From: a virus
Lineage: Duplodnaviria > Heunggongvirae > Uroviricota > Caudoviricetes
Reading direction: 5' to 3' (one strand)
Virus record (IMG/VR): IMGVR_UViG_2531839666_000019
DNA: 38,533 nucleotides
The position numbers were made by a program, and so were the translations under genes. The notes under the pieces are model-generated. The model worked only from the letters and a program-made list of their open reading frames with translations, was not told the origin of the DNA and did no database searches. This document shows positions 1,080 to 30,443 of this stretch, piece after piece. Each line of letters begins with the position of its first letter. Position 1 is the first letter of the stretch.

Positions 1080-1530
1080 CTCTGCACTACCTGTTGGTGT
1101 GCCTGTTCCGTGGCCGTCAGCCACACCGCCAGCAGGGTGGCTGAAATGTAACGGCGCAGCATTTTCTTCTGAAATGTACCCCAGGCTGGCAAAGGCTTAT
1201 CCGACCAATAAATTACCGGATTTACGGGGCGAATTTATCCGTGGCTGGGATGACGGACGAGGTATTGATGCAGGACGAGAGATACTTTCATTTCAGGAAG
1301 GCACTATCGTCTCCGGTTTTGATGATAATGATACTGGGGATATCAGTTCACTCAGCTCAACACAATACGGATTTGGTGACACTTTAACCTCTAATCAATG
1401 GGGGGCCATAAATGGCAAAAAGTGGATATTTGATGCATCCAGTAAAGGTGCCCAAAAATATGACTGGTGGGCTTATGTATCAGCTCGTCCGCGTAATATT
1501 GCATTTAATTACATCGTAAGAGCGGCATAG
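1066..1530 (+). CDS. silent alternative tail-fibre C-terminal cassette A (no ATG start; expressed only after inversion)
   Basis: Begins GEGSALPVGVPVPWPSATPPAGWLKCNGAAF, the same sequence that follows site D in the expressed tail fibre; ends with conserved RPRNIAFNYIVRAA; ORF-track start is TTG inside the gix site. Confidence 0.75.
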   Translation, partial: GLGEGSALPVGVPVPWPSATPPAGWLKCNGAAFSSEMYPRLAKAYPTNKLPDLRGEFIRGWDDGRGIDAGREILSFQEGTIVSGFDDNDTGDISSLSSTQYGFGDTLTSNQWGAINGKKWIFDASSKGAQKYDWWAYVSARPRNIAFNYIVRAA

Positions 1531-1551
1531 AAACGTTGGTTTGGGGGAAGG
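1524..1551 (+). other. gix/hix-like crossover site B
   Basis: ATAGAAACG-TT-GGTTTGGGGGAAGG, core at 1536-1537, immediately after the stop codon of cassette A. Confidence 0.7.
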
Positions 1552-1969
1552 CTCTGCACTGCCCGTTGGTGTGCCTGTTCCGTGGCCCTCAGCCACACCG
1601 CCAACAGGCTGGCTGAAATGTAACGGTGCAGTATTTTCTGCTGGGAAGTACCCCAAACTGGCACAGGCTTACCCCACCAATAAATTACCGGATTTACGGG
1701 GCGAATTTATTCGTGGCTGGGATGATGGACGTGGAGTGGACAATGGGCGAGCATTATTAAGCAGGCAGGAGGCTACAAATTTTTCTTATTACGGAGGTAA
1801 TTTCGATATTGGGTCTGGTCATTCAATCAATAACTATGACCAAATCGTTGACAACCAACCTGGATTCTCCCGTTTTTCATTTGCAGGTCCTTCGCGAGGC
1901 GATGGGGTTAATTTTGTGACCATTCGTCCTCGTAATATTGCGTTTAATTACATCGTAAGGGCAGCATGA
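1538..1969 (+). CDS. silent alternative tail-fibre C-terminal cassette B
   Basis: Same conserved N-terminal block and C-terminal RPRNIAFNYIVRAA with a different central region; starts in gix site B. Confidence 0.75.
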   Translation, partial: GLGEGSALPVGVPVPWPSATPPTGWLKCNGAVFSAGKYPKLAQAYPTNKLPDLRGEFIRGWDDGRGVDNGRALLSRQEATNFSYYGGNFDIGSGHSINNYDQIVDNQPGFSRFSFAGPSRGDGVNFVTIRPRNIAFNYIVRAA

Positions 1970-1990
1970 AAACGTTGGTTTGGGGGAAGG
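1963..1990 (+). other. gix/hix-like crossover site C
   Basis: CATGAAAACG-TT-GGTTTGGGGGAAGG, core at 1975-1976, immediately after the stop codon of cassette B. Confidence 0.7.
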
Positions 1991-2483
1991 CTCTGCACTA
2001 CCTGTTGGTGTGCCTGTTCCGTGGCCGTCAGCCACACCGCCAGCAGGGTGGCTGAAATGTAACGGCGCAGCATTTTCTTCTGAAATGTACCCCTGGCTGG
2101 CAAAGGCTTATCCGACCAATAAATTACCGGATTTACGGGGCGAATTTATCCGTGGCTGGGATGACGGACGGGGAATTGATTCAGGGCGTTTCTTGCTTAA
2201 TGCACAACCACATTCGGTTATGGATCATACTCACTATATGGAGTTATGGACCGGTGAAGGGCTTGCTGCAAACAGCACCCGTGCAGGAACAAACCCTGGT
2301 ATACTGGCTACATACGGTGATGGCGGGATTGTTAAAACAGATGAGTCAGGTGTAAAAGTTCCATCTTCACTACGTGCTATTGGCACTCGTGGTGTTTATA
2401 GATTAGGTGCCAACGGAGGGAATACAGGAACGGAAAACCGCCCCCGTAATATTGCGTTTAACTATATTGTAAGGGCTACTTAA
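1977..2483 (+). CDS. silent alternative tail-fibre C-terminal cassette C
   Basis: Same conserved block (about 125 bp identical to the expressed copy) and C-terminal motif; stop overlaps the tfa start (TAATG at 2481-2485). Confidence 0.75.
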   Translation, partial: GLGEGSALPVGVPVPWPSATPPAGWLKCNGAAFSSEMYPWLAKAYPTNKLPDLRGEFIRGWDDGRGIDSGRFLLNAQPHSVMDHTHYMELWTGEGLAANSTRAGTNPGILATYGDGGIVKTDESGVKVPSSLRAIGTRGVYRLGANGGNTGTENRPRNIAFNYIVRAT

Positions 2484-3100
2484 TGAATAATGCTGCTGCA
2501 GTACTTGATCAGAATGGTATCGCTATAACTGCAGGCGATATTACCGTTTATAACTACGATGCTGAAAACCGTGAATATCTCTCTGCCACTGTTGAATATC
2601 TCGCTTATGGTGTTGGAATTCCGGCTCACTCATGCATTGACGCGCCACCAGAAAAACGCCCCGGCTTCGCTGTCTGTCGTGATACCGACCAGAACATCTG
2701 GAAATATGTTCCAGACCACAGAGGCGAAACGGTTTACAGCACAGAGAATGGTAACGCTGTGCAAATCACACAGCCGGGAGATTACCCTTCAGATACGACG
2801 GTGAAACAGCCAGCTACCATCTATGATGTCTGGGATGGTGAGACCTGGGTGACAGATACGAGACGACAGCACGCAGCAGAACTGGAAGCTGCCGGAGCGC
2901 ATCGTCAGCAACTTGAGGAACAGGCAATGGCATCTGTTGAGCTTATTAATCTCAAACTACGAGCCGGACGCCGATTGACGCCCCAGGAGACGGAAAAACT
3001 AAACGCCGTGCTTGATTTCATAGATGCGCTTAATGCGACTGACATCAGCACTGCACCGGATATCAACTGGCCGGAAATGCCTCTGGCAGCAGCCAGTTGA
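2483..3100 (+). CDS. tail fibre assembly protein (Tfa/U-like chaperone)
   Basis: 205-aa protein with the typical Tfa N-terminal region; lies directly downstream of cassette C and converges on the expressed tail fibre. Confidence 0.75.
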   Translation: MNNAAAVLDQNGIAITAGDITVYNYDAENREYLSATVEYLAYGVGIPAHSCIDAPPEKRPGFAVCRDTDQNIWKYVPDHRGETVYSTENGNAVQITQPGDYPSDTTVKQPATIYDVWDGETWVTDTRRQHAAELEAAGAHRQQLEEQAMASVELINLKLRAGRRLTPQETEKLNAVLDFIDALNATDISTAPDINWPEMPLAAAS

Positions 3101-3106
3101 GTATAA

Positions 3107-4075
3107 TTAAGCCGCCCTCACGATATAGTTAAATGCAATATTGCGGGGGCGAGTTTCACTACCACCAGTGTTACCAATACTTCCTCGTGAATGAAGCGTT
3201 GGTGATGGAATCAAACTCCCTCCTGTATTTGCAGCATCAAGTCCCCGGCCTTGTGAATATGTTTTTTTGAAAATTGTGGCCAACTCCCATTCATCCTTTG
3301 TGTCATACCCATCGTTAGCTACAACAATATGGCGGTGTTTTTCCAGCATCCCAGTTTGAAAGCTCAATAAAGCACGTCCTGCATCAATCCCTCGCCCGTC
3401 ATCCCAGCCACGGATAAATTCGCCCCGTAAATCCGGTAATTTATTGGTCGGATAAGCCTTTGCCAGCCAGGGGTACATTTCAGAAGAAAATGCTGCGCCG
3501 TTACATTTCAGCCACCCTGCTGGTGGTGTTGCTGAGGGCCACGGAACGGGCACACCAACGGGCAGCGCAGAGCCTTCCCCCAAACCAAGGTTTTTGACAA
3601 ACAGCGCAGGATCAGGAATATCTGCGCCGTTCTGGTCTTTAGCCAGCTTTTCCGCCAGCTTGTTCAGTACCGTAGTCGCAAAGTTTGGATCATTACCGAG
3701 AGCGTCAGCCAGCTCTTTAAGCGTATCCAGTGTCTCAGGGGCGCTGCCTGCAAGCGCCGCAAGTGCTTTGGCCACAAACTCCGTCGTCGCCAGCTTTTTG
3801 CTGTTATCGCCATTTGCAGGTGTAGGTGCTGTTGGTGTGCCGGTGAATGCCGGACTGGCTTTCGGTGCATACTGGGCATGCGGGTCTGCTGCCGCGATGT
3901 GTTTCGCAAGGTCAGCCCCGCCTTTTTCAACCTGTTGCTTCAGGTACAGCGTGCGGCTGGCCAGTTGTTTACCCTGACGGTTAGAAATTCCGTCAGGCCC
4001 GCCCAGAACGGGGTCAGAGACCTCAATCTGGTAGATGCCGTCTTCCCACTGTGGGGTTTCAGGTAGATTTGCCAT
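3107..4075 (-). CDS. tail fibre protein (constant N-terminal part plus currently expressed variable C-terminal cassette D, 3107-3586)
   Basis: 322-aa protein; N-terminal tail-fibre region followed after site D by the GEGSALPVGV block and the RPRNIAFNYIVRAA terminus. Confidence 0.85.
   Translation of the reverse strand: MANLPETPQWEDGIYQIEVSDPVLGGPDGISNRQGKQLASRTLYLKQQVEKGGADLAKHIAAADPHAQYAPKASPAFTGTPTAPTPANGDNSKKLATTEFVAKALAALAGSAPETLDTLKELADALGNDPNFATTVLNKLAEKLAKDQNGADIPDPALFVKNLGLGEGSALPVGVPVPWPSATPPAGWLKCNGAAFSSEMYPWLAKAYPTNKLPDLRGEFIRGWDDGRGIDAGRALLSFQTGMLEKHRHIVVANDGYDTKDEWELATIFKKTYSQGRGLDAANTGGSLIPSPTLHSRGSIGNTGGSETRPRNIAFNYIVRAA
3573..3600 (-). other. gix/hix-like crossover site D, inverted relative to A-C, inside the expressed tail-fibre gene
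   Basis: Plus strand reads CCTTCCCCCAAACC-AA-GGTTTTTGACAA, a near-palindrome resembling hixL; core at 3587-3588; encodes FVKNLGLGEG of the tail fibre. Confidence 0.75.
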
Positions 4076-4656: not shown

Positions 4657-5752
4657 CGGACACCCCTGTCACGTTAAGAGTGATTGCCGTACAGTTTGCC
4701 CATTCGTTTTCTGCAACCACCCGCAGTGCCGGTGTCACCAGTTCAACCTGGTACACCCCGGAAACGGACAATGCACTGATAATCTGGCTGGGGACAATAT
4801 CGCGTCCCAGCGTGGCGGCACGTGATGCCACCCAGTTCTGTATGGCGCTGTTAGCGTTGTCCTTTACCGACATTGCATCCTGATCACGATAGATCGTAAT
4901 CCTGGCTTCAATGGTGTAATCCACCTGAACAGGTGTTTTAGCCCGCACGGTATCAGTGAGTGGTCTGACTTTTTCGTCAGAACAGAAACTCTCTACCAGA
5001 GTGAGGATACTGCTGTCTGGCAGACCAGTGCTGAGCAGTGGATACAGCTCGACAGTACCGGGAACGGGAGAAAGAACAGCGACGTCGACAATACTGGGAT
5101 GCGCCCCCATGGCATGAAAACGGTATGCACCACGGCTTCCGGCATTGGTGAATGACTCCGGGGCCAGCCTGATACGCTCCCGGAGTCGGTCATTGTCTTC
5201 CTGCTCTGAACCGCCAGTGCTGGCCGTCAGATTGGTCACCAGCAGGTCAACGTTATCAATCTCATCAAGCAGCTGACTGACCTGAGCCGGTTGCCAGCCG
5301 TTGCCAGAGGTACCCGGCTCAGTACAGGTGGCAGGGGCATTGACCAGTTGCAAACCGGCCTTCAGCACTACATCTGTATCGGTGGCAAAAATCACGCTGT
5401 CGGAAGCGCTGACGCGGGTGCCTGCCGGGATCAGCACATCAATGGCCAGTGCCTCATCCACAGAGAACTGAAGTGTGGTGGTGGCAGGCTGCGCGGGAAG
5501 GCGGTATACACCAACCAGTTCTCCGAGGTAATCAATCATCGGCTCCCGGGAAAAGGCGACCAGATTCAGCTTCGCCGCCTCCTGTACCGCCACCCTGACC
5601 AGCATTTCGCGATAGGCCCACAGATCTATTAGCAGACGTTCTGCCTGTGCCGGGTACAACGTTTTGCCGGTATCCGCTTCATATTTCGCAATCATTTCTG
5701 CCGTGATTTTATCGGCATCGAGTTCAATAAAATCGGGTTCTGTCAGCGCCAT
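4649..5752 (-). CDS. baseplate J-like protein (Mu gp47-like)
   Basis: 367-aa ORF, position and size typical of baseplate J family; overlaps neighbours by a few bases in operon fashion. Confidence 0.75.
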   Translation of the reverse strand: MALTEPDFIELDADKITAEMIAKYEADTGKTLYPAQAERLLIDLWAYREMLVRVAVQEAAKLNLVAFSREPMIDYLGELVGVYRLPAQPATTTLQFSVDEALAIDVLIPAGTRVSASDSVIFATDTDVVLKAGLQLVNAPATCTEPGTSGNGWQPAQVSQLLDEIDNVDLLVTNLTASTGGSEQEDNDRLRERIRLAPESFTNAGSRGAYRFHAMGAHPSIVDVAVLSPVPGTVELYPLLSTGLPDSSILTLVESFCSDEKVRPLTDTVRAKTPVQVDYTIEARITIYRDQDAMSVKDNANSAIQNWVASRAATLGRDIVPSQIISALSVSGVYQVELVTPALRVVAENEWANCTAITLNVTGVSDG

Positions 5753-6090
5753 AGCAGTTCCTGAGTACGGGGTTGTCCGTCTGAGCCTTTCCAGCTCACC
5801 CGGAGCGTAAGATGTTCGCCGTCGACGGCGGGTTTAACCGACATAAGCTGGCAGCGGGGTTCCCAGCGCCTGATGGCATCGACGGATTCGCGAACCACAT
5901 GCGGAATGGCCCGGTCGACAGGCCAGTCGATATAAAGGTGCAGATTGCTGCCGAACTCTGGGCGATGCGGGTCGCTGCCGCGGGGAGTCCGCAGGATGAT
6001 CTGGATGGACTGCTGGATATCATCCAGCCCCCGGACGATTTCGCCGGGAGCCTGCAGAGCCGGTTGCCAGAATACTGAGGTCGTTTTCAT
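5743..6090 (-). CDS. baseplate protein, GPW/gp25-like (Mu gp46-like)
   Basis: 115-aa ORF with typical size and position; N-terminus MKTTSVFWQPALQAPGEIVRGLDDIQQSI. Confidence 0.7.
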   Translation of the reverse strand: MKTTSVFWQPALQAPGEIVRGLDDIQQSIQIILRTPRGSDPHRPEFGSNLHLYIDWPVDRAIPHVVRESVDAIRRWEPRCQLMSVKPAVDGEHLTLRVSWKGSDGQPRTQELLWR

Positions 6091-6161
6091 GGGGGCAGTA
6101 TTGCCCCAGTAAGAAAAGAACGATATTAAAGGGATTTAAAAAGGAGTTATTGATACGTTTG

Positions 6162-7037
6162 TTAAATTACGAAAACCTTGACGATAAGTTCTCCGTCTTT
6201 AGAAACTCTCTTCCCCTCAAGATCAGATTTCAGCCCCTCAGAATTAGTAATAAGCTGGTTCGGATCGTAGATGACACACCAGAGATTTTTGCAATCAGAG
6301 TGCCGACGATAATGCTCTATATCGATAATAAGTTCATCGCCGATTTTCTTTGCATGAGAACGATCACGAACAATTTTGGTTTCCAGTACTAATTTATGCG
6401 CAGGTAACAAAAAATCCATTCGAGTACTTGAACCAGCGTAACTTGGAGTAAACTCTTCTGGGCGGATGTCCTGAACCCATGGTCTGAGCAATGCATGGAG
6501 AAGGTCTTGCACGTCATATTCATTGCTAAAAGATAATGACTGGCTTCCTTTTCGCCTATGAGTAAGTGGATGCATTGCTCGCTGTAAGCCTTTGACCAGC
6601 CTTTCCAGTAAGTTCTCAACTTTTTCTGGCATTACTGGCTGTTGATAAGTAATTATGGTCTCTGGGTAATCCATATTGTGTGACGGGATGTGGCCTTCAG
6701 GCAACACTCGACCAAAACGATAATATCTAAGTCCATTCTCTTGTAACACAGCTTCAATTCTGTCTCGTTTTTCCTTCCATTCTGCATATTCGGGAGTACC
6801 TTCTTTTGGAGGTAAATCCATAAACTCCTCAATTACTCCGCCCAGAACTGCCAGACTATCTGTATCTGGATCTTGCCCTGCAAGAAATAACCAGTCTTTC
6901 CATTTTGTACTATGAGATCCTGCCGGAGGGTTTCCTGGTGCTCCCGAAGTAAGAAATAACGTATCTAAAGCTGCATGAGAGCCTGAGTTAGCAATGACAT
7001 CGCCAACTACTTTACATAAGGATCTTGATAACCGCAT
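6162..7037 (-). CDS. inserted accessory gene in the baseplate block; candidate PD-(D/E)xK-fold nuclease-like protein
   Basis: 291-aa ORF, visibly AT-richer than flanking genes, flanked by 71-bp and 81-bp spacers; C-terminal region contains D-x11-E-x-K (MDFLLPAHKLVLETKIV). Confidence 0.5.
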   Translation of the reverse strand: MRLSRSLCKVVGDVIANSGSHAALDTLFLTSGAPGNPPAGSHSTKWKDWLFLAGQDPDTDSLAVLGGVIEEFMDLPPKEGTPEYAEWKEKRDRIEAVLQENGLRYYRFGRVLPEGHIPSHNMDYPETIITYQQPVMPEKVENLLERLVKGLQRAMHPLTHRRKGSQSLSFSNEYDVQDLLHALLRPWVQDIRPEEFTPSYAGSSTRMDFLLPAHKLVLETKIVRDRSHAKKIGDELIIDIEHYRRHSDCKNLWCVIYDPNQLITNSEGLKSDLEGKRVSKDGELIVKVFVI

Positions 7038-7118
7038 TTAAGTCCCCGCCAAATTAGTGTTAATTAAAAAATTCTATCATATCCGCGGGAGAGGAAATGG
7101 AGTCACATACTTGAAAAA

Positions 7119-7631
7119 TTAGTGAGAGTGATGATTGGAATTCTGTCCATCTGCAAATATGTTACCAGTCGCATGGGTACTCCCTTTGATTTCAAGATTG
7201 CCGTTCACCATGATAGTGTCAGCTGTCAAATCAATGGTTTTCCCTTTCAGACTAATACCCACTGCAACCTCGATCACCACATGCTCGATACCTCCTTTGA
7301 CCGTCAGCGTATGGGTCGCGCGGTCATAACTGAACTCCGCGCCATCAGCGTACTTCGTGCCCCGGACGTTTTTATCACCGAACGGCGGTTTATCGACGTC
7401 TGAGTACACCGCGCCCAGAATAACACCATCCTCGCCGTTGGCATCGAGCAGCACCTCAACCTGCTCCCCCACGTCAGGGAGCCAGTAATCCTTGTTATCC
7501 TGGGTATTGCGCTGCAGCACGTTAAGCCAGTTTGTGCGCAGATTATCGCATTCAGGCAGACGAACGCGGGCCTGAACCCTGTCGGCATCAACGGCACTGA
7601 CCGTACCGACCTGGCGGGTGACACCAGTCAT
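7119..7631 (-). CDS. baseplate spike/assembly protein V-like (Mu gp45-like)
   Basis: 170-aa ORF with typical size, position and small beta-rich sequence. Confidence 0.7.
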   Translation of the reverse strand: MTGVTRQVGTVSAVDADRVQARVRLPECDNLRTNWLNVLQRNTQDNKDYWLPDVGEQVEVLLDANGEDGVILGAVYSDVDKPPFGDKNVRGTKYADGAEFSYDRATHTLTVKGGIEHVVIEVAVGISLKGKTIDLTADTIMVNGNLEIKGSTHATGNIFADGQNSNHHSH

Positions 7632-13745: not shown

Positions 13746-15172
13746 CAGTTGCCCCCTTTCAGGGTTAACAGGTATTCCGAGGTGATCTCAGTCTCAAACG
13801 TCAGTCGCTCCAGCGGCGGTGGTGGCGTATATTTGTAGCTCAGCAACAGGTGCCCGGCGGCCAGCTCCGTTTCCGGATTGCGGGCCGGATCAAACCAGCA
13901 ACGGAAGCCCAGTACCGCGCCATCACCAGTCATTTTGCGACCGTAGGCGTTGACCGACTCCGTCAGTGCATCAATCAGCGCCTGAGTAATCGGCATGTCG
14001 ATGTACTGCTGGCTGAAGTAACGAATGGACTCATTGATCACATCACCGGTGCGGCGAACGTTCTCAAAGTTACGCATATGGGTGACCGTTGGCCATGCTG
14101 CCGTCCGGTTACCCCACAGACGAAGGCCGCTGCCGTAACTGCTGAATACCGTGGTGATCCCCTGTTCGTTAAGCAGGTTCACCTCGCTCTGCGGATCGTC
14201 AATCATTGCCGACAGCTGGCGCTCCACGCCGGTGATCCCCAGAATTTCCTGATTTGAGGATGACCACCAGTACCCTTTGTCCAGGTCGACTTTGGCACGC
14301 AGGCCCGCCGCACGCTGGCTCAGTGGCTCCAGACGTTCCGTGTTCGTCACCGGGTCATATACCTTCACATGCGGGTAGCACAGGCGGACACGGTCAGAGC
14401 TGGTATTAAAGTTAATGGTGCCTTCCGGGCCTCGTCCCGCCAGAGCCTGCGCAAAAGTGGTACCAACCGGCGCATCAATATAGGTTACTGCTCCCAGTTT
14501 CTCAGCCATGGCGATAAGCTCAACCGAGACGCTGTTCTGGGTGCAGAATACCGGAGCAATCAGGATTTTGGCGAAGTAGCCAAACAGGTTAAAACTGTCG
14601 TTAAGCAGCTTCATGCCGGTACGGTTGCCTGCAGCGTTAACGGTACCGATGATATCAGCCGGGGTGACTTTGGTCGGATCAGCATAGTTATAGCTGGCCT
14701 TCACCGTTGCATCTGCAGCAATGCTTTTACCCAGGTTAGTAATCACCCCGGTCTGTGCATCAAGCGAGTAGTCCTGACCTTCAACATAAGGCTGACCGTC
14801 GCTGTCCGGTTTCAGTACCAGCTGCGCGACCACCGGATTAGCCAGCCGGGCTCTGCCTGTCGCCTTGTCGAACGACACATTCTCACTGACCACAGCGGTT
14901 TTATGCACAGACGGATCGAGTACGTTAATGACCAGAACGGTGCCTGCACCATGGTCATAAATCGCATCCAGCGCCTGTGGAATGGTAAAGCCGGTGAACT
15001 GGCTGCCAAATGCCGCAGCGTCTTTCTCAGACAGGCACTGTACCAGCGTATTGACATCCCCCATTGGTGCGGTACCAATCAGGCCAATAACGGCAGATTT
15101 CACCGTTTTAACCGGGCGGGCACCGTTTTCCACTTCAATGGTTTCCGGACCATGCAGATAGTTAGCTGACAT
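13745..15172 (-). CDS. contractile tail sheath protein (Mu gp39-like)
   Basis: 475-aa ORF, N-terminus MSANYLHGPETIEVENGARPVKTVKSAVIGLIGTAP typical of sheath proteins. Confidence 0.85.
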   Translation of the reverse strand: MSANYLHGPETIEVENGARPVKTVKSAVIGLIGTAPMGDVNTLVQCLSEKDAAAFGSQFTGFTIPQALDAIYDHGAGTVLVINVLDPSVHKTAVVSENVSFDKATGRARLANPVVAQLVLKPDSDGQPYVEGQDYSLDAQTGVITNLGKSIAADATVKASYNYADPTKVTPADIIGTVNAAGNRTGMKLLNDSFNLFGYFAKILIAPVFCTQNSVSVELIAMAEKLGAVTYIDAPVGTTFAQALAGRGPEGTINFNTSSDRVRLCYPHVKVYDPVTNTERLEPLSQRAAGLRAKVDLDKGYWWSSSNQEILGITGVERQLSAMIDDPQSEVNLLNEQGITTVFSSYGSGLRLWGNRTAAWPTVTHMRNFENVRRTGDVINESIRYFSQQYIDMPITQALIDALTESVNAYGRKMTGDGAVLGFRCWFDPARNPETELAAGHLLLSYKYTPPPPLERLTFETEITSEYLLTLKGGN

Positions 15173-26342: not shown

Positions 26343-26666
26343 ATGACTGAACCGAAACAGTCTGGTATTAAAAAAGGGTTCCTCTTTGGGAGCAGAATCG
26401 GAGAGCAGAATAAAACTTACACGCTAAGCTTGGATGCATGTTGTCCAACCGAAGCGATTATAGAGCTGAAAAACGTTCTGGTTGCACTTGAAGAGAGAAG
26501 AAGTCATTTCGCCAGCGGAGAAAACAACGTCATGCTAATTGGCGATGTGGCGGCGACATCACGATATAAAACCGCACCTAATCCTGCGATTCAGTTATCC
26601 TTCGACCAACGAATACTGGAAGCGGAATCAGCAGTTCCCAGAACGGTTCGTCCTCACCAGTCTTAA
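26343..26666 (+). CDS. hypothetical protein
   Basis: 107-aa ORF from the ATG at 26343, preceded by GGGGAGG; divergent from the late operon; overlaps the 3' end of the 26578-27153 gene, so one of the two may be shorter or spurious. Confidence 0.35.
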   Translation: MTEPKQSGIKKGFLFGSRIGEQNKTYTLSLDACCPTEAIIELKNVLVALEERRSHFASGENNVMLIGDVAATSRYKTAPNPAIQLSFDQRILEAESAVPRTVRPHQS

Positions 26667-27153
26667 CTGGGGCTGCTTCACCCGACCAGTAAAGCCAAGC
26701 ACGGTGATACAGTTCCAGCACCGGGCAATCACTGTTCAATAACCTCATATCTCCGCGATGCACCTGCTCATTTGTGATGACTTCATATATCGGTGCCGTT
26801 CTTATTTCGTCTTCGCCTCTCTCATCAGCCAGTAATTCCCTGAACTTCCTGACTTCACTCAGATGCTGACAGGCAAACAGTGACTGATAGCGGGAAGGTT
26901 TATCAGGAAAATGGCTACGGCGAACTAACTCAAACACCAGACCGACCAGCAGACTTCTGCTGATTCCACTGTCATCTTCCATTTTAGGGCCGGGGTTATA
27001 GAGATAGTTATACCCGTGACTCGAAAGGCCATTGGGATACATCTGATGAAGAAAAGCGGCCAGTTCTGGCATTTCAGGCTCGTATTTTCCGGTAATTACA
27101 TGACAAGGCGAAGGCAGACGACTAGCGGAATCAAGTGTGTAATACGTTCCCAT
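26578..27153 (-). CDS. hypothetical protein (accessory/cargo)
   Basis: 191-aa ORF with AAGGA upstream of the ATG; no recognisable motif. Confidence 0.45.
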   Translation of the reverse strand: MGTYYTLDSASRLPSPCHVITGKYEPEMPELAAFLHQMYPNGLSSHGYNYLYNPGPKMEDDSGISRSLLVGLVFELVRRSHFPDKPSRYQSLFACQHLSEVRKFRELLADERGEDEIRTAPIYEVITNEQVHRGDMRLLNSDCPVLELYHRAWLYWSGEAAPVKTGEDEPFWELLIPLPVFVGRRITESQD

Positions 27154-27561
27154 TCAGAAAACAATCCTTATCGAACAAACACTGCACGTAGGTAATGCAT
27201 CCAGTAAATCGCGTTAATAGAAATCATGTATCTCAAAACTTCACTCTGAACTCTGACAGTGAAAGAACGACCAGCCCGGTACCCGAACTCCGGGCTGGTC
27301 ATCGCCCCACAGGAATGCACTGTGAGCCGACCGAGGTTCAGTCAGTCTCGCGAGACCAGACTAGCCTGCCATATTTTTATAATTATAAAAGGGTTACAGA
27401 TTATGAAAATGCAGACATTCCCCATCGCTCCATGGATTGGTTGTAAACGCCGCCATGCCAGACATATTCTGGCCGATGTTTCCTAGCACGCACGAATATG
27501 AGGCAACTGACGAGAATAAATGATGCGTCAGAATGAACCGTCGACACCGTGATTTCAGGTT

Positions 27562-28173
27562 TCAAAAATCTGGAGAAGGTATATCTATCTGACCGACGTT
27601 TCGTAACCACATCTCTTGCTTTGTTTCTTTATTGGTTCGGGCGATATCATTAGCATTGTATCTGCATGTTTTAACCGCAACCTCACGAACTCGTGCTATA
27701 GGAGTATTTGTGTAGAATTTAAGATCTTCCTCTACCGCTCGTATGGCGATAAGCCCTCCACTCTGAAAACCGCTGGTTACTTTTAAAAGATCAACTCCTT
27801 GGTTATAAACGGCATTACATACGTTAGGGAACTCATCTTCTACAGTTTTGGGGATCATCAGCATATCAGGAAGACCCTGTAACACGTTATCTTCCTTTGG
27901 CCTCCATGCCCTTCCCAAAAAAGCTGTTATAGGTTGTGGTGTAGAAAGAAATGCCAATTCTATATAAAACAAACCACTGTAGTGATCGCGTAACGAATAG
28001 ACTAGTAAATGATCTTTTCCAGTTTTACTTGCATTGCTAAGTTTTATATCAAATGGTTTTTTCTGGTACTTAAGCAATCCATCAACTCCCGCATAATAAT
28101 GCTTTGAAACAGCAACAGAAAGTTGATGTACTTGGTTCGGATAATCTGTTCTATATCGTTTAATTAGCCCCAT
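27562..28173 (-). CDS. hypothetical protein, AT-rich cargo gene
   Basis: 203-aa ORF, visibly AT-richer than the phage backbone; no recognisable motif. Confidence 0.5.
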   Translation of the reverse strand: MGLIKRYRTDYPNQVHQLSVAVSKHYYAGVDGLLKYQKKPFDIKLSNASKTGKDHLLVYSLRDHYSGLFYIELAFLSTPQPITAFLGRAWRPKEDNVLQGLPDMLMIPKTVEDEFPNVCNAVYNQGVDLLKVTSGFQSGGLIAIRAVEEDLKFYTNTPIARVREVAVKTCRYNANDIARTNKETKQEMWLRNVGQIDIPSPDF

Positions 28174-28232
28174 AATAGCCTCGCAGTTATTTTCTATTTC
28201 AAAATATAACGATATTTACTATCTGGAGTGTT

Positions 28233-28269
28233 TTGTTGGTCAAGTAATAGAGCTCTACATGGGGCGGTC
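28233..28269. repeat. 37-bp direct repeat, left copy flanking IS1
   Basis: TTGTTGGTCAAGTAATAGAGCTCTACATGGGGCGGTC, identical to 29038-29074. Confidence 0.9.
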
Positions 28270-28284
28270 GGTAATGACTCCAAC

Positions 28285-28788
28285 TTATTGATAGTGTTTT
28301 ATGTTCAGATAATGCCCGATGACTTTGTCATGCAGCTCCACCGATTTTGAGAACGACAGCGACTTCCGTCCCAGCCGTGCCAGGTGCTGCCTCAGATTCA
28401 GGTTATGCCGCTCAATTCGCTGCGTATATCGCTTGCTGATTACGTGCAGCTTTCCCTTCAGGCGGGATTCATACAGCGGCCAGCCATCCGTCATCCATAT
28501 CACCACGTCAAAGGGTGACAGCAGGCTCATAAGACGCCCCAGCGTCGCCATAGTGCGTTCACCGAATACGTGCGCAACAACCGTCTTCCGGAGCCTGTCA
28601 TACGCGTAAAACAGCCAGCGCTGGCGCGATTTAGCCCCGACATAGCCCCACTGTTCGTCCATTTCAGCGCAGACAATCACATCACTGCCCGGCTGTATGC
28701 GCGAAGTTACCGACTGCGGCCTGAGTTTTTTAAGTGACGTAAAGTCGTGTTGAGGCCAACGCCCATAATGCGGGCTGTTGCCCGGCAT
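28285..28788 (-). CDS. insB: IS1 InsB (transposase reading frame, normally expressed as InsAB by frameshift)
   Basis: 167-aa ORF matching IS1 InsB. Confidence 0.9.
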
Positions 28789-28982
28789 CCAACGCCATTC
28801 ATGGCCATATCAATGATTTTCTGGTACGTACCGGGTTGAGAAGCGGTGTAAGTGAACTGCAGTTGCCATGTTTTACGGCAGTGAGAGCAGAGATAGCGCT
28901 GATGTCCGGCGGTGCTTTTGCCGTTACGCACCACCCCGTCAGTAGCTGAACAGGAGGGACAGCTGATAGAAACAGAAGCCAC
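28707..28982 (-). CDS. insA: IS1 InsA
   Basis: 91-aa protein [40 protein letters not shown]. Confidence 0.95.
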
Positions 28983-29010
28983 TGGAGCACCTCAAAAACA
29001 CCATCATACA

Positions 29011-29985
29011 CTAAATCAGTAAGTTGGCAGCATCACCTTGTTGGTCAAGTAATAGAGCTCTACATGGGGCGGTCAAAACACGGGCATAACGACCATCGGG
29101 GTTTATGTTGATGTAACAAGTTTTCCCTTTAACACCATAAGATTCAGGTATTATTGCCTGTGTAGACACCGTGAATTTAAGGGTATGCCAGCCCGATTTT
29201 TGCTTGTAGCTTGAAACCGAATGGAAATCATCTGAGTACTTATTTAACCCTGGAAACATGCTGCGTAATGCTGGGATGGAATCTTCTATTATTTTGTCGT
29301 TGGTTTTAATGTTAAAAACGCTGGTTTCAGTAGATGCTACTGCTTTAGCATTTCCCCATTTACCAGCGAACACAATCATTCCCACGAAAAATATTGCGAC
29401 AAGAACTAACGCTCCCCCCAACACTACTACATGAGGCTTCCGGCTTCTGGTTGGTACAGTCGCGACTGATTTTGCCCCGCTGTCCGATGGAGGTGATAGA
29501 GTTTTACTCTCATCACGAATATTCAGCAGATCATCAAAATAACCAAACACAGCCTGCAACTGCTCTTTGTCCAGGCCTTTAAGATGGGTTGTACCGAAAT
29601 GCTTCAGACAGTATCTGTCACGGTCAAGACGATACCTAGGGTCAGTAAGCACCATTATTTTGCTGACCAGAAGATTACAGTCCTTCATATTCTGGATCTG
29701 TTGTGCATATCTCTGGAGGATCTCAACCGCACCATGATAATCAGCCGCAGTCATTTCATTAACTGTTTTGGTATTAAGTTTCGTGTGGATCGTCATCCAT
29801 AGTTCGCGCTTACTTTCCCCCAGATCAACCAATTCATCCATCAATCTGTGTAAATCGCGTTTTTGCAGCAACGAAATTGGTTGCTGGGCAGAGGGAAGTA
29901 TGTCAGCAGAATAGTTATGAATGGTAACATCACCGCTGACAACGTTACCCACATCTCCGTTAACTGTTTGCTTCTCTTTACTCAT
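29011..29985 (-). CDS. single-pass membrane protein co-transcribed with the repressor; 3' end replaced by IS1 sequence
   Basis: 324-aa ORF; N-terminal GDVGNVVSGDVTIHNY motif, TM helix VVVLGGALVLVAIFFVGMIVFAG; last 8 codons and stop lie inside IS1; without IS1 the frame would continue leftward to a stop near 28194. Confidence 0.6.
   Translation of the reverse strand: MSKEKQTVNGDVGNVVSGDVTIHNYSADILPSAQQPISLLQKRDLHRLMDELVDLGESKRELWMTIHTKLNTKTVNEMTAADYHGAVEILQRYAQQIQNMKDCNLLVSKIMVLTDPRYRLDRDRYCLKHFGTTHLKGLDKEQLQAVFGYFDDLLNIRDESKTLSPPSDSGAKSVATVPTRSRKPHVVVLGGALVLVAIFFVGMIVFAGKWGNAKAVASTETSVFNIKTNDKIIEDSIPALRSMFPGLNKYSDDFHSVSSYKQKSGWHTLKFTVSTQAIIPESYGVKGKTCYININPDGRYARVLTAPCRALLLDQQGDAANLLI
29038..29074. 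repeat. 37-bp direct repeat, right copy flanking IS1
   Basis: Identical to 28233-28269. Confidence 0.9.
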
Positions 29986-30443
29986 TTTCTCTTTGTATTT
30001 TTGTTCATTATTCCACCTGTTCCTATGGTTACGTTACCTTTGATAACATTCCCCAGAACATCTCCATGAATAACCTGTTCCGCCCGTTCTCTGGAGGAGC
30101 CAGTCGTCAATGCCGACAAAACTGAACCTTTGACTTGTAACGGTGCTTGCCGGTAGTGCTGAAGTAACTCCATTTCATCACGTGATAAAGTTATACCTGA
30201 TGATTCCCCAGTAAGAATGAACTGTACGTTGGCCCCAATTCTTGCAAAGGCTGCAAGTAACTCACCTCCGGGAACTGCAACCCCTCGTTCATATTTCCCC
30301 CACATTTCTCTTGAAACGCCACAAAGGGCTGCTACTTCAGCCTGCTTGAGTGATAACCGCGAACGCTCAGCTTTGAACCGCGACGCGCAAAGAGAATCAA
30401 AATTCACATAAACCTCATTGACAATGAGAACAATAGTTCTCAT
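29982..30443 (-). CDS. XRE-family HTH repressor (CI-like, functional analogue of Mu c)
   Basis: HTH segment LSLKQAEVAALCGVSREMWGKYERGVAVPGGELLAAFARIGANVQFILTG; divergent from the Ner-like gene. Confidence 0.75.
   Translation of the reverse strand: MRTIVLIVNEVYVNFDSLCASRFKAERSRLSLKQAEVAALCGVSREMWGKYERGVAVPGGELLAAFARIGANVQFILTGESSGITLSRDEMELLQHYRQAPLQVKGSVLSALTTGSSRERAEQVIHGDVLGNVIKGNVTIGTGGIMNKNTKRK

Follow-up and report, generated by a model that had tools for sequence, protein, structure and literature searches.

Why should a Mu-like prophage of Escherichia coli carry a nuclease gene between two genes for its baseplate? The prophage examined here (IMG/VR record IMGVR_UViG_2531839666_000019) was analysed over a stretch of 38,533 nucleotides, referred to below as the window. 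In this region an acquired gene, whose product has 291 amino acids, separates the gene of a V-like baseplate spike protein from that of a W/gp25-like baseplate wedge protein (Table 1). An earlier note, based on the nucleotide sequence of the window, had described the minus-strand ORF at this position, and both its existence and its spacers were confirmed: 81 bp on the V side (7038-7118) and 71 bp on the W side (6091-6161). The questions that follow are where this DNA came from, what the protein is, and what it may do for the prophage or its host.

Table 1. Features of the nuclease locus and its flanks (positions in the window)
Feature	Position	Strand	Basis or remark
W/gp25-like baseplate wedge gene, downstream flank	5743..6090	-	PF04965, E 4.2e-12; record annotation
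Ancestral V-W intergenic spacer, kept beside W	6091..6144	-	aligns with the entire V-W spacer of empty-site relatives
Hairpin GGGGCA-AUAC-UGCCCC in the ancestral spacer	6092-6107	-	conserved; abuts the W start codon; fold z = -3.0 versus shuffles
Acquired insert of ~974 bp, ends placed to +/-2 bp; made up of the 5' regulatory spacer, the ORF for the nuclease and a 3' tail of 17 bp	6145..7118	-	junction alignments with empty sites L002, L003 (PhiKM) and L004 (KP12)
ORF, 291 aa, ATG start, WP_001371051.1	6162..7037	-	stop codon 6162-6164 included
PD-(D/E)xK REase domain, aa 140-291	6165..6620	-	Pfam PF18742, REase_DpnII-MboI
Catalytic motif D208 (6414-6416), E219 (6381-6383), K221 (6375-6377)	6375..6416	-	invariance in homologues
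Linker, aa 114-139, variable, low-confidence	6621..6698	-	pLDDT <50 for residues 116-132; most variable stretch of the alignment
N-terminal domain, aa 1-113, five helices and a beta-hairpin, predicted death-like/CARD-like fold	6699..7037	-	predicted
Shine-Dalgarno-like GGGGA, 5 nt before ATG	7043..7047	-	read from sequence
Putative extended -10 element TGATAGAAT, within the 5' spacer of 81 bp	7071..7079	-	read from sequence; no -35 element
V-like baseplate spike gene, upstream flank	7119..7631	-	PF04717, E 3.5e-7; record annotation: phage baseplate assembly protein V

Origin and boundaries of the insert

Junction alignments revealed that the inserted DNA starts directly after the stop codon of the V-like gene (7119-7121), which is the insertion point. 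Relatives lacking the gene possess a V-W spacer of their own, ~55 bp long, that survives in the prophage as positions 6091-6144; the inserted DNA therefore corresponds to 6145-7118. This also qualifies the suggestion that the late operon is tightly packed except at this locus, because the two spacers are real but other gaps exist in the operon and the V-W genes of relatives were already separated. The insert is bordered by neither direct repeats nor a target-site duplication, and only A-run microhomology was found at the junctions. The V-W junction is moreover a mosaic boundary, as the identity to one empty-site relative is 99.1% for W and 90.2% for V.

The base composition of the insert is clearly foreign. 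Its GC content is 41.6%, compared with a mean of 53.6% (sd 4.8) for windows of the same size, only 0.9% of which are as poor in GC, and the GC3 value of the gene is 0.34, versus 0.58-0.68 in five neighbouring genes. The gene is thus AT-richer than its surroundings, as had been proposed, and its separate acquisition is confirmed by this composition together with the empty sites found in related prophages.

Among 636 E. coli genomes holding the V and W flanks, an intact insert is present in 12, and the nuclease gene is absent from ~97% of the related E. coli prophages; homologues at the V-W position in most relatives were thus not observed, but the opposite. The two flanking genes are adjacent in all 60 records drawn at even intervals from the ranked list of E. 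coli genomes, as well as in phages KP12 and PhiKM, which lack the nuclease gene, and the gene can indeed be said to split a conserved baseplate block. Only one sublineage is occupied in E. coli: the genomes whose best match is at least 99% identical all carry the gene (18/18), either intact or IS-disrupted, and no diverged relative is occupied at the V-W site among the matches listed. In 7 carriers the nuclease gene is disrupted by IS elements; B7A, 503025 and ATCC 43896 are disrupted carriers, and JNEC-KY202 and WS3294A have the gene intact. A role as a structural protein of the virion was rejected in view of this absence from most related prophages and by the IS disruptions in some carriers. 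The view of the V-W junction as a general hot spot for cargo was likewise rejected, since V and W are adjacent in all of the sampled E. coli relatives and no other cargo was seen there.

The cassette brings its own candidate expression signals. A scan of the spacers found neither a canonical sigma-70 promoter nor a terminator; the putative extended -10 element listed in Table 1 was missed by the consensus scan because it has no accompanying -35 element. The homologue locus of Salmonella (L009) has an identical element, equally far from the ATG.

A nuclease domain joined to a helical N-terminal domain

The C-terminal half of the protein was confirmed, at the level of sequence, as a PD-(D/E)xK nuclease domain of the PF18742 family, and nuclease activity is predicted for it. 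PF18742 is the sole Pfam match of the protein (160 bits versus a gathering cut-off of 27, E 4e-47), aligning residues 143-286 with positions 2-147 of the 150-position model. The D/E/K arrangement noticed earlier in this region holds, but its spacing has to be corrected from D-x11-E-x-K to D208-x10-E219-x-K221. All of 42 close homologues and all of 105 diverse members of the family keep these three residues, and E194/E195 and D239 are invariant alongside them; the catalytic residues are thus intact and the nuclease assignment stands. The C-terminal half also has the alpha/beta core fold of restriction endonucleases, with BamHI, BstYI, BglII and OkrAI as its best structural matches. It is well known that all four of these enzymes cut around a GATC core.

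The N-terminal ~150 residues had been reported to contain no recognisable motif, and in agreement with this the N-terminal half has no sequence match in Pfam, NCBIfam or the PDB; the isolated domain found no Pfam family even at E <= 10. Structural modelling predicts a death-like/CARD-like fold, similar to the "death domains" of animal immunity, and the closest structural matches are the death-like/CARD domains of the proteases of CARD-NLR and CARD-gasdermin systems (PDB 8ss1, 9frr). Neither a comparison of the domain profile with PDB sequences nor a Foldseek search against the PDB lent support to the death-fold idea; the assignment is a prediction.

As judged from sequence searches, the helical domain of ~113 residues, previously undescribed, appears to be restricted to this nuclease family. 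A word-indexed search with residues 1-116 for other architectures gave only fragments of the same family. The matches to the N-terminal domain alone that emerged from an exhaustive search (P0214, P0233, P0198) have tails that look out of frame and are probably frameshift artefacts, while P0166, considered as a new architecture, merely has a Cys-rich N-terminal extension added. Other N-terminal domains of the PF18742 family are not recognisable as remote homologues (hhalign, no probability >=50% in 101 comparisons). An HMM search of six-frame translations of the window and of loci L001-L018 for a second copy of the domain retrieved only the gene itself.

A solitary gene on many mobile elements

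The protein has about 3,400 relatives in databases, and its exact 291-aa sequence is present on 809 contigs. Most of the close homologues come from Dam-positive enterobacteria, and intact homologues of ~70% identity occur in Pseudomonas aeruginosa and Burkholderiales, with no linked DNA methyltransferase. It is well established that P. aeruginosa and Burkholderiales lack Dam. Conservation of the sequence across orders is very high. The homologues are scattered over numerous unrelated sites, non-phage islands and chromosomal loci among them, and their neighbours differ wholly from one context to another; many reside in non-phage islands beside defence genes. In two lambda-type phages they lie at the same terminase-portal junction, one copy adjoins the Dar anti-restriction genes of P1, and in P. 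aeruginosa the homologue belongs to a four-gene block with a trypsin-like protease, found at two different genomic sites. What spreads over many genera and types of element is a one-gene cassette.

No partner genes lie nearby. The window encodes no ATPase or protease adjoining the nuclease gene and no pAgo, and no DNA methyltransferase is annotated in the prophage. Likewise, none of the homologue contexts examined contains a pAgo gene, and no DNA methyltransferase was found among the called neighbours in ~20 homologue loci. The weak PADLOC match to pAgo of a neighbour in L017 (E 2e-4) belongs to a protein of the Schlafen/AlbA_2 type. The only methyltransferase-like neighbour, in L031, gave weak or faint matches to generic SAM-methyltransferases, not to a DNA methyltransferase family. 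A hidden downstream partner was also rejected, because none is encoded in the window and the small 3' ORFs of other contexts are mutually unrelated; the Bflower ORF common to the Pantoea and P1-like copies is an exception among them.

Proposed function and its alternatives

On balance we consider it probable that a BcepMu-like transposable prophage has here acquired a moron, encoding a self-contained anti-phage defence or superinfection-exclusion protein whose nuclease is under N-terminal control. The case for the immunity or exclusion function suggested by the earlier note has gained strength: immune systems are documented to use this nuclease domain as an effector module, and the homologues travel as cargo of mobile elements or defence islands. 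The acquired cassette, with its own promoter-like region and placed after the V stop codon, would have no part in building the virion but would allow expression of the two-domain protein from the lysogen. PF18742 nucleases serve as killing or degrading effectors in other bacterial immune systems; here the nuclease would stay switched off in the absence of an infection cue, which would be relayed by the N-terminal domain. As in other death-fold domains, this action probably involves regulated self-association, bringing the nuclease domains together; the enzyme so activated would stop the infection by degrading invading DNA, host DNA or both. A more specific proposal, which we make tentatively and regard as rather doubtful, is that of a self-contained "death-fold nuclease", in which the N-terminal death-like/CARD-like module itself senses the phage cue, self-associates into higher-order assemblies, like its eukaryotic counterparts, and switches on the fused nuclease through proximity, needing neither NLR nor protease nor Argonaute as a partner. 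If true, death-fold signalling would here be reduced to its minimal form, a single protein, which phages and other mobile elements would have spread across Proteobacteria.

Four other explanations have to be weighed against self-contained defence. The protein might be the effector half of a split system, inert by itself, whose N-terminal adaptor docks onto a cognate domain of a host-encoded sensor (NLR/STAND-type, protease or Argonaute-like). Known bacterial CARD/death-like domains do act through partner proteins, the closest characterised nuclease, bAgaN, requires a pAgo, and the protease-containing block of P. aeruginosa could be read in the same way. However, the trypsin-like neighbour there has no copy of the N-terminal domain, no second copy exists in any of the flanking regions (~20), and comparison with conserved neighbour proteins by hhalign gives probabilities below 1%. 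The complete change of neighbours between contexts also speaks against a split system, as does the presence of the domain, at the level of sequence, on this nuclease only, and a one-gene cassette distributed over so many genera and elements is hard to square with a host-specific partner; we judge this reading unlikely. An orphan endonuclease of the DpnII/MboI type, directed at unmethylated GATC, from which the Dam of the host would give protection while incoming or rapidly replicating, under-methylated DNA is cut, is distinctly unlikely. It would agree with the namesakes of PF18742, which are of similar size, with the GATC-core cutters among the structural matches and with the prevalence of Dam-positive hosts. 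Against it stand the lack of an adjacent DNA methyltransferase in any context, the intact homologues in taxa without Dam, the non-specific DNase activity of the nearest characterised relative, and an N-terminal domain with the look of an adaptor fold instead of a DNA-recognition domain.

A free-standing homing endonuclease, or a purely selfish nuclease spreading by cutting empty alleles during co-infection, would also look like this: a lone AT-rich gene placed between genes of a conserved late operon, accompanied by a regulatory region of its own and found in a minority of relatives; the mosaic boundary at the insertion site and the shared terminase-portal junction of the two lambda-type phages are consistent with it. 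Nevertheless, we consider homing very improbable, given the many unrelated sites of the homologues, the restriction to one E. coli sublineage with no diverged relative occupied among the matches listed, and the lack of a recognisable DNA-binding module in the protein; cross-order conservation of this degree and a nuclease family of immune effectors are, in addition, atypical for homing endonucleases. Finally, the protein could serve counter-defence, as a death-like/CARD-like decoy against CARD-dependent immunity of the host or as a nuclease attacking host or competitor DNA during lytic growth. A CARD-only protein of Acinetobacter phage 133 inhibits a CARD-gasdermin system, the late operon would also transcribe the gene, as no terminator intervenes, and the copy next to the Dar genes fits such a role. 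A decoy, however, needs no strictly conserved catalytic nuclease domain, many homologues lie in non-phage islands next to defence genes, and CARD-NLR systems are not known to be common in E. coli. This last explanation is extremely improbable.

Comparison with known systems

The nearest characterised protein is bAgaN (EcbAgaN), the nuclease associated with long-B pAgos in BPAN systems (PMC10620215; PDB 23wq; PADLOC "Aga_Helical-REase"). The two share a homologous C-terminal PD-(D/E)xK REase with the D-E-x-K motif (PADLOC E 1.8e-30, query residues 136-274 versus positions 224-362 of the 378-position model; phmmer E 2e-5, residues 142-253 versus 230-344 of EcbAgaN) and a layout in which a flexible linker connects two domains. 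On this analogy the 291-aa protein may be an abortive-infection effector with the activity of a non-specific, metal-dependent DNase. In contrast to AgaN (~390 aa), it has an unrelated N-terminal domain and is encoded by a solo gene on mobile elements, whereas the Argonaute gene is adjacent in BPAN; an Argonaute system was rejected, since no pAgo occurs in the prophage or in homologue contexts. Detocs is reported to use a PF18742 nuclease as its effector as well, but that effector (DtcC) carries a receiver domain and is accompanied by DtcA kinase and DtcB genes, while here PF18742 is the only Pfam match and these neighbours are lacking.

DpnII and MboI share with our protein the Pfam family of the nuclease domain and, approximately, its size. 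They differ by their cognate methyltransferase, which has no counterpart in the contexts examined, and Dam-negative taxa are among the carriers of the gene; a classical R-M system was rejected for the absence of a methyltransferase from the prophage and from homologue contexts. Like free-standing homing endonucleases of phages, the present gene lies between conserved phage genes and is carried by some relatives only, but no diverged relative among the matches listed is occupied at the same site and the homologues are not confined to phages.

With the bacterial CARD-NLR and CARD-gasdermin systems (Wein et al., bioRxiv 10.1101/2023.05.28.542683; LypABC, PMC13236601) the protein would share the idea of a death-fold module controlling a cell-killing effector. 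In those systems the CARD resides on a trypsin-like protease encoded in an operon with an NLR-like ATPase, whereas here the domain is fused to a nuclease. Effector-associated domains (EAD) and bacterial death-like domains (bDLD) fused to effectors (Kaur, Burroughs, Iyer, Aravind; PMC8195603, PMC7159879) provide a similar layout, a terminal helical adaptor-like domain attached, in our case through the linker, to an REase-fold effector. Their defining second adaptor copy on a sensor protein was found in none of our loci, however, and neither Pfam nor profile comparisons assign the domain to a named EAD or bDLD family. Such systems are enriched in multicellular bacteria; the carriers of this gene are ordinary unicellular enterobacteria and phages. 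A functional analogue is GAPS1, a single-protein defence triggered by a phage capsid protein (bioRxiv 10.1101/2023.03.28.534373). It needs its C-terminal PD-(D/E)xK domain for defence, is presumed to have its sensor at the N-terminus, is carried by mobile islands and arrests growth once activated. GAPS1 (WP_005477165.1) is larger, has 14 residues between its active-site D313 and K328 (12 here), and its listed E. coli homologues have accessions other than that of our protein; from the published description it probably represents a different family.

Significance

A literature search found no paper naming the 291-aa protein and none describing a death-fold-nuclease defence system. If our interpretation holds, the gene would represent a widespread, uncharacterised single-gene anti-phage system. 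The PF18742 nuclease, known so far in the service of Argonaute and Detocs systems as their subordinate effector, would then also occur as a stand-alone protein with its own N-terminal control domain, and bacterial death-fold-like domains would extend from multi-gene protease/NLR systems to direct fusion with a nuclease. A moron within the baseplate operon of a Mu-like phage also sits where one would not normally look for cargo. The gene (~870 bp) is small and easily cloned, its catalytic residues are obvious targets for mutation, and natural IS-knockout strains exist. Defence-finding tools miss it, and it currently goes under the wrong labels "transposase" or "hypothetical".

Acquisition of the nuclease gene

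Between the V-like spike gene and the W/gp25-like wedge gene lies the 291-aa minus-strand ORF described in the earlier note, present exactly as claimed, with spacers of 81 bp and 71 bp; a gpD-like hub gene is located upstream of this region and J-, I- and H-like genes downstream (see table). The AT-richness claimed relative to its neighbours also holds: the insert has a GC content of 41.6%, where the window averages 53.6% (sd 4.8, same-size windows), only 0.9% of such windows are as GC-poor, and GC3 is 0.34 in the nuclease gene compared with 0.58-0.68 in five neighbouring genes. This strong compositional anomaly, together with empty sites in E. coli genomes and in phages KP12 and PhiKM (V-W gap of ~55 bp), bears out the proposal that a separately acquired gene splits a conserved block.

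The V/W flanks were found in 636 of 5,426 complete E. coli genomes, only 12 of which contain an intact insert, while flanks of 99% identity or more occur in 18 genomes, all of them (18/18) carrying the nuclease gene, intact or disrupted. Sampling 60 records evenly down the E. coli ranking revealed V-W adjacency in every one (span 1,016-1,111 bp) and no alternative cargo at the junction, so the acquisition was a one-off in a minor sublineage, and a hot spot was rejected. No target-site duplication or terminal repeats were found around the insert, only A-run microhomology. Compared with the empty-site relative from strain IGC_RcoliRes_1.1, W is 99.1% identical and V only 90.2%, thus the V-W junction is also a recombination (mosaic) boundary. 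The W-proximal hairpin, part of the ancestral spacer and not of the insert, shows conservation among relatives with an empty site, and its fold is better than that of shuffled sequences (z = -3.0); it might regulate W translation or mRNA stability.

Features of the nuclease locus, its disrupted copies, its homologues and the host prophage
Feature	Position	Strand	Remarks
V-like spike gene	7119-7631		PF04717; one side of nuclease ORF
Extended -10-like element TGATAGAAT	7071-7079		putative, read from sequence; in 81-bp 5' spacer
GGGGA	5 nt before ATG of nuclease ORF
Nuclease ORF	6162-7037	minus	291 aa, ATG start
Foreign DNA	6145-7118		starts immediately after V stop codon (junction alignments)
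Ancestral V-W spacer	6091-6144		retained beside W (junction alignments)
Hairpin GGGGCA-AUAC-UGCCCC	6092-6107	minus	abuts W start codon
W/gp25-like wedge gene	5743-6090		PF04965; other side of nuclease ORF
ORFs of second AT-rich accessory region	26578-27153, 27562-28173, 29011-29985
IS2 disruption	strain B7A (L019), viral-contig copy (L014)
IS2 + IS100 disruption	strain 503025 (L021)		IS100 on top of IS2
ISCro1 disruption	strain ATCC 43896 (L020)		IS66 family
P. aeruginosa homologue	loci L005-L008, 5516-9304		conserved four-gene block, two different genomic sites
Salmonella homologue			island beside TIR/bSEFIR and DUF4365-TPR genes, several integrases
Dickeya homologue			integrative element at ssrA/smpB, integrase-proximal cargo position
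E. coli homologue			small integrase/AlpA/resolvase element
Pantoea homologue			toxin/immunity-like region
Permianibacter homologue			adjoins Shedu-type SduA_C gene
Burkholderiales homologue			chromosomal site
P1-like homologue			beside ddrB/DarA
Homologues in two lambda-type head modules			between large terminase and portal; one beside Schlafen/AlbA_2 gene
Beta-flower ORF (PF21784, 99 aa)	P1-like loci L015/L016, 6923-7222; Pantoea locus L026, 6130-6429		directly downstream of homologue

A conserved nuclease with a family-specific N-terminal domain

Residues 143-286 match the Pfam family PF18742 (REase_DpnII-MboI) with an E value of 4e-47 and 160 bits against a cut-off of 27, and D208, E219 and K221, as well as E194/E195 and D239, are invariant in 105 diverse family representatives. 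The protein is therefore a PF18742 member and the PD-(D/E)xK nuclease that had been suggested, as is also reflected in its RefSeq name ('PD-(D/E)XK nuclease domain-containing protein', WP_001371051.1). The proposed D/E/K arrangement is real; its spacing, given as D-x11-E-x-K, had been miscounted by one residue and is D208-x10-E219-x-K221. PHROGs assigns the protein to phrog_29450 (annotated as unknown function), an NCBIfam search gave no match, and PADLOC matches the nuclease half only, with Argonaute-associated 'Aga_Helical-REase' models (E 1.8e-30). Detocs systems, too, are listed with PF18742 among their alternative effector domains. Of the proteins with a solved structure, only EcbAgaN is related by sequence (E 2e-5), a dimeric two-domain protein with a C-terminal REase fold and a D-EVK motif which, when activated by a long-B Argonaute, acts as a Mn2+-dependent non-specific DNase, leading to abortive infection (PMC10620215).

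Residues 1-113 are conserved to the same degree as the nuclease domain (invariant residues include R2, S4, C8, H21, the GAPG-PP loop, W46, K47, W49 and E70/E71). This isolated domain has no match in Pfam even at E <= 10, nor, as a profile, among PDB sequences, and no other architecture containing it was found in word-indexed or exhaustive HMMER sequence searches. Modelled alone (pLDDT 92.8, pTM 0.86), it forms five helices followed by a beta-hairpin, and ~15 of its top 60 structure matches are death, CARD or pyrin domains (MyD88, CRADD, UNC5H2; the pyrin domains of AIM2, NLRP3 and NLRP10; the SP100 CARD), a pattern repeated with the full-length model. On the other hand, scores about as good were obtained for helical bundles that are unrelated (bromodomains, cullin and Cas12 fragments), and Foldseek against PDB returned nothing significant. 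Judged from the model, a death fold is somewhat more likely than not.

A word-indexed search identified 3,375 relatives, the best 120 of which are full-length ~290-aa proteins (67-100% identity) of Escherichia, Salmonella, Yersinia, Dickeya, Serratia, Pantoea, Pseudomonas, Alishewanella, Permianibacter and Burkholderiales; the identical protein is encoded on 809 contigs. When 1.84 billion representatives were scanned exhaustively with HMMER, 2,983 matches resulted; in nearly all of them similarity is confined to the REase domain (query residues ~135-290), and the N-terminal region differs. Among the 105 representatives, Pfam names few of these regions (DUF2321, DUF5763, double zinc ribbon, one AbiJ_NTD3, one MIR); in family representatives their median length is ~130 aa (range 90 to 288 aa), and hhalign found none related to the domain of the window protein. 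The family thus combines a single conserved nuclease with many exchangeable N-terminal domains, a design typical of immune effectors with variable sensor/adaptor modules. Many entries are named 'transposase' (one fragment 'IS4 family'), a label to which the sequence gives no support and which looks like a propagated annotation error.

Genomic contexts, disrupted copies and expression signals

Mobile DNA of many kinds, including prophages, integrative elements and defence-type islands, carries the homologues as solo cargo. [quoted passage not shown] No second copy of this domain was found by HMM in the flanks (window and loci L001-L018), and hhalign against conserved neighbours gave probabilities below 1%. 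No linked DNA methyltransferase, Argonaute or NLR-like ATPase was present in any homologue context examined, and the annotation of the whole prophage contains neither a DNA methyltransferase nor an Argonaute. Downstream neighbours show no relationship to one another, apart from the beta-flower ORF common to the Pantoea and P1-like copies, and none of the downstream ORFs of other contexts is encoded in the window. The beta-flower ORFs of the P1-like element and Pantoea chromosomes are 92% identical; homologue and ORF appear to have moved as a two-gene segment.

The nuclease gene (876 bp) is broken in 7 of ~19 E. coli carriers, including four other ETEC genomes counted by the same partial match as 503025. 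Three different insertion sequences (IS2, IS100 and ISCro1) are involved. The rate of independent inactivation is high, and the gene is clearly dispensable for prophage and host; the disruptions may reflect a fitness cost, preference for AT-rich targets or the IS load of ETEC lineages.

The Salmonella locus has the TGATAGAAT nonamer at an identical distance from the ATG, and the Dickeya and P1-like copies share with the window a TTTCC-rich block of the 5' spacer, which indicates that this spacer travels with the gene. A consensus promoter scan of the spacer called none, because a -35 is absent, and no terminator was found in a scan after the gene; transcription thus probably reads through both from the late operon and into it. 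The gene is presumably expressed in the lysogen.

Possible function

We are almost certain that this is an acquired accessory nuclease gene and not a tail component. The most economical reading, towards which we lean, is that of a single-protein defence or exclusion nuclease given by the prophage to its host, as the earlier note had considered. It is suggested by the foreign one-gene cassette, the intact PF18742 nuclease, the family-specific N-terminal domain, the solo mobile spread and the lack of nearby partners. The fold prediction, taken with the way in which death-fold domains and REase dimers function, suggests a mechanism in which the N-terminal domain would keep the nuclease off until an infection cue triggered its regulated self-association, switching the nuclease on.

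It is unlikely that the nuclease is instead an effector needing a trans-encoded partner. Somewhat less probable is an orphan GATC enzyme of the DpnII type that relies on host Dam for protection: P. aeruginosa and Burkholderiales lack Dam, yet they contain intact homologues with no methyltransferase linked to them. A free-standing endonuclease of the homing or another selfish type is more doubtful still, since the insertion sites of homologues are many, unrelated and partly non-phage, and a counter-defence decoy would be the most surprising of these outcomes.

The nuclease protein resembles the EAD-effector architecture, but the second adaptor copy of EAD systems is missing here; GAPS1 is a functional analogue, likened by description and not by sequence. 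BPAN/AgaN, Detocs, type II R-M and CARD-NLR identities were rejected, a defining feature of each having been looked for and found lacking. Our literature search turned up no publication that describes this protein or the fusion of a death fold to a PD-(D/E)xK domain. The gene is a plausible, widespread and easily testable candidate for a new family of single-gene defences, and it might also represent a minimal form of bacterial death-fold signalling.

The host prophage

A complete E. coli prophage of the BcepMu-like type (Mu-like, transposable) makes up the window. Strain JNEC-KY202 contains an essentially identical copy (99.9% or more across the collinear stretches that were compared), which interrupts the pdu operon and has genes for a DDE transposase, an ExeA/MuB-like protein, Gam and Mor. 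In the reference genome the prophage is flanked by partial GlcG/HbpS-like and cob(I)yrinic acid a,c-diamide adenosyltransferase fragments (14302-14646 in locus L001, 12597-13265 in L013); the prophage apparently splits a pduO-type gene, matching Mu-like transposition into a random target. In the tail-fibre region (~1259-3594) the window is inverted with respect to the JNEC-KY202 copy, to which it is nearly identical elsewhere. This fits an invertible host-range switch resembling the Mu G segment, which would be driven by the adjacent Gin-like recombinase (gene at ~425-997) and is seen here in its alternative orientation.

A second AT-rich accessory region (~26500-30000; 973-bp windows down to 39.6% GC), located between the lysis genes and a repressor-like HTH gene, encodes one DUF2441 protein and two proteins without Pfam or PADLOC matches. 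An IS1 (28270-29037), absent from JNEC-KY202, resides in the 3' end of the 324/328-aa gene of this region. By a simple mononucleotide expectation, GATC is under-represented in the prophage (87 sites, ~149 expected), and the insert contains 6 such sites (~3.6 expected).
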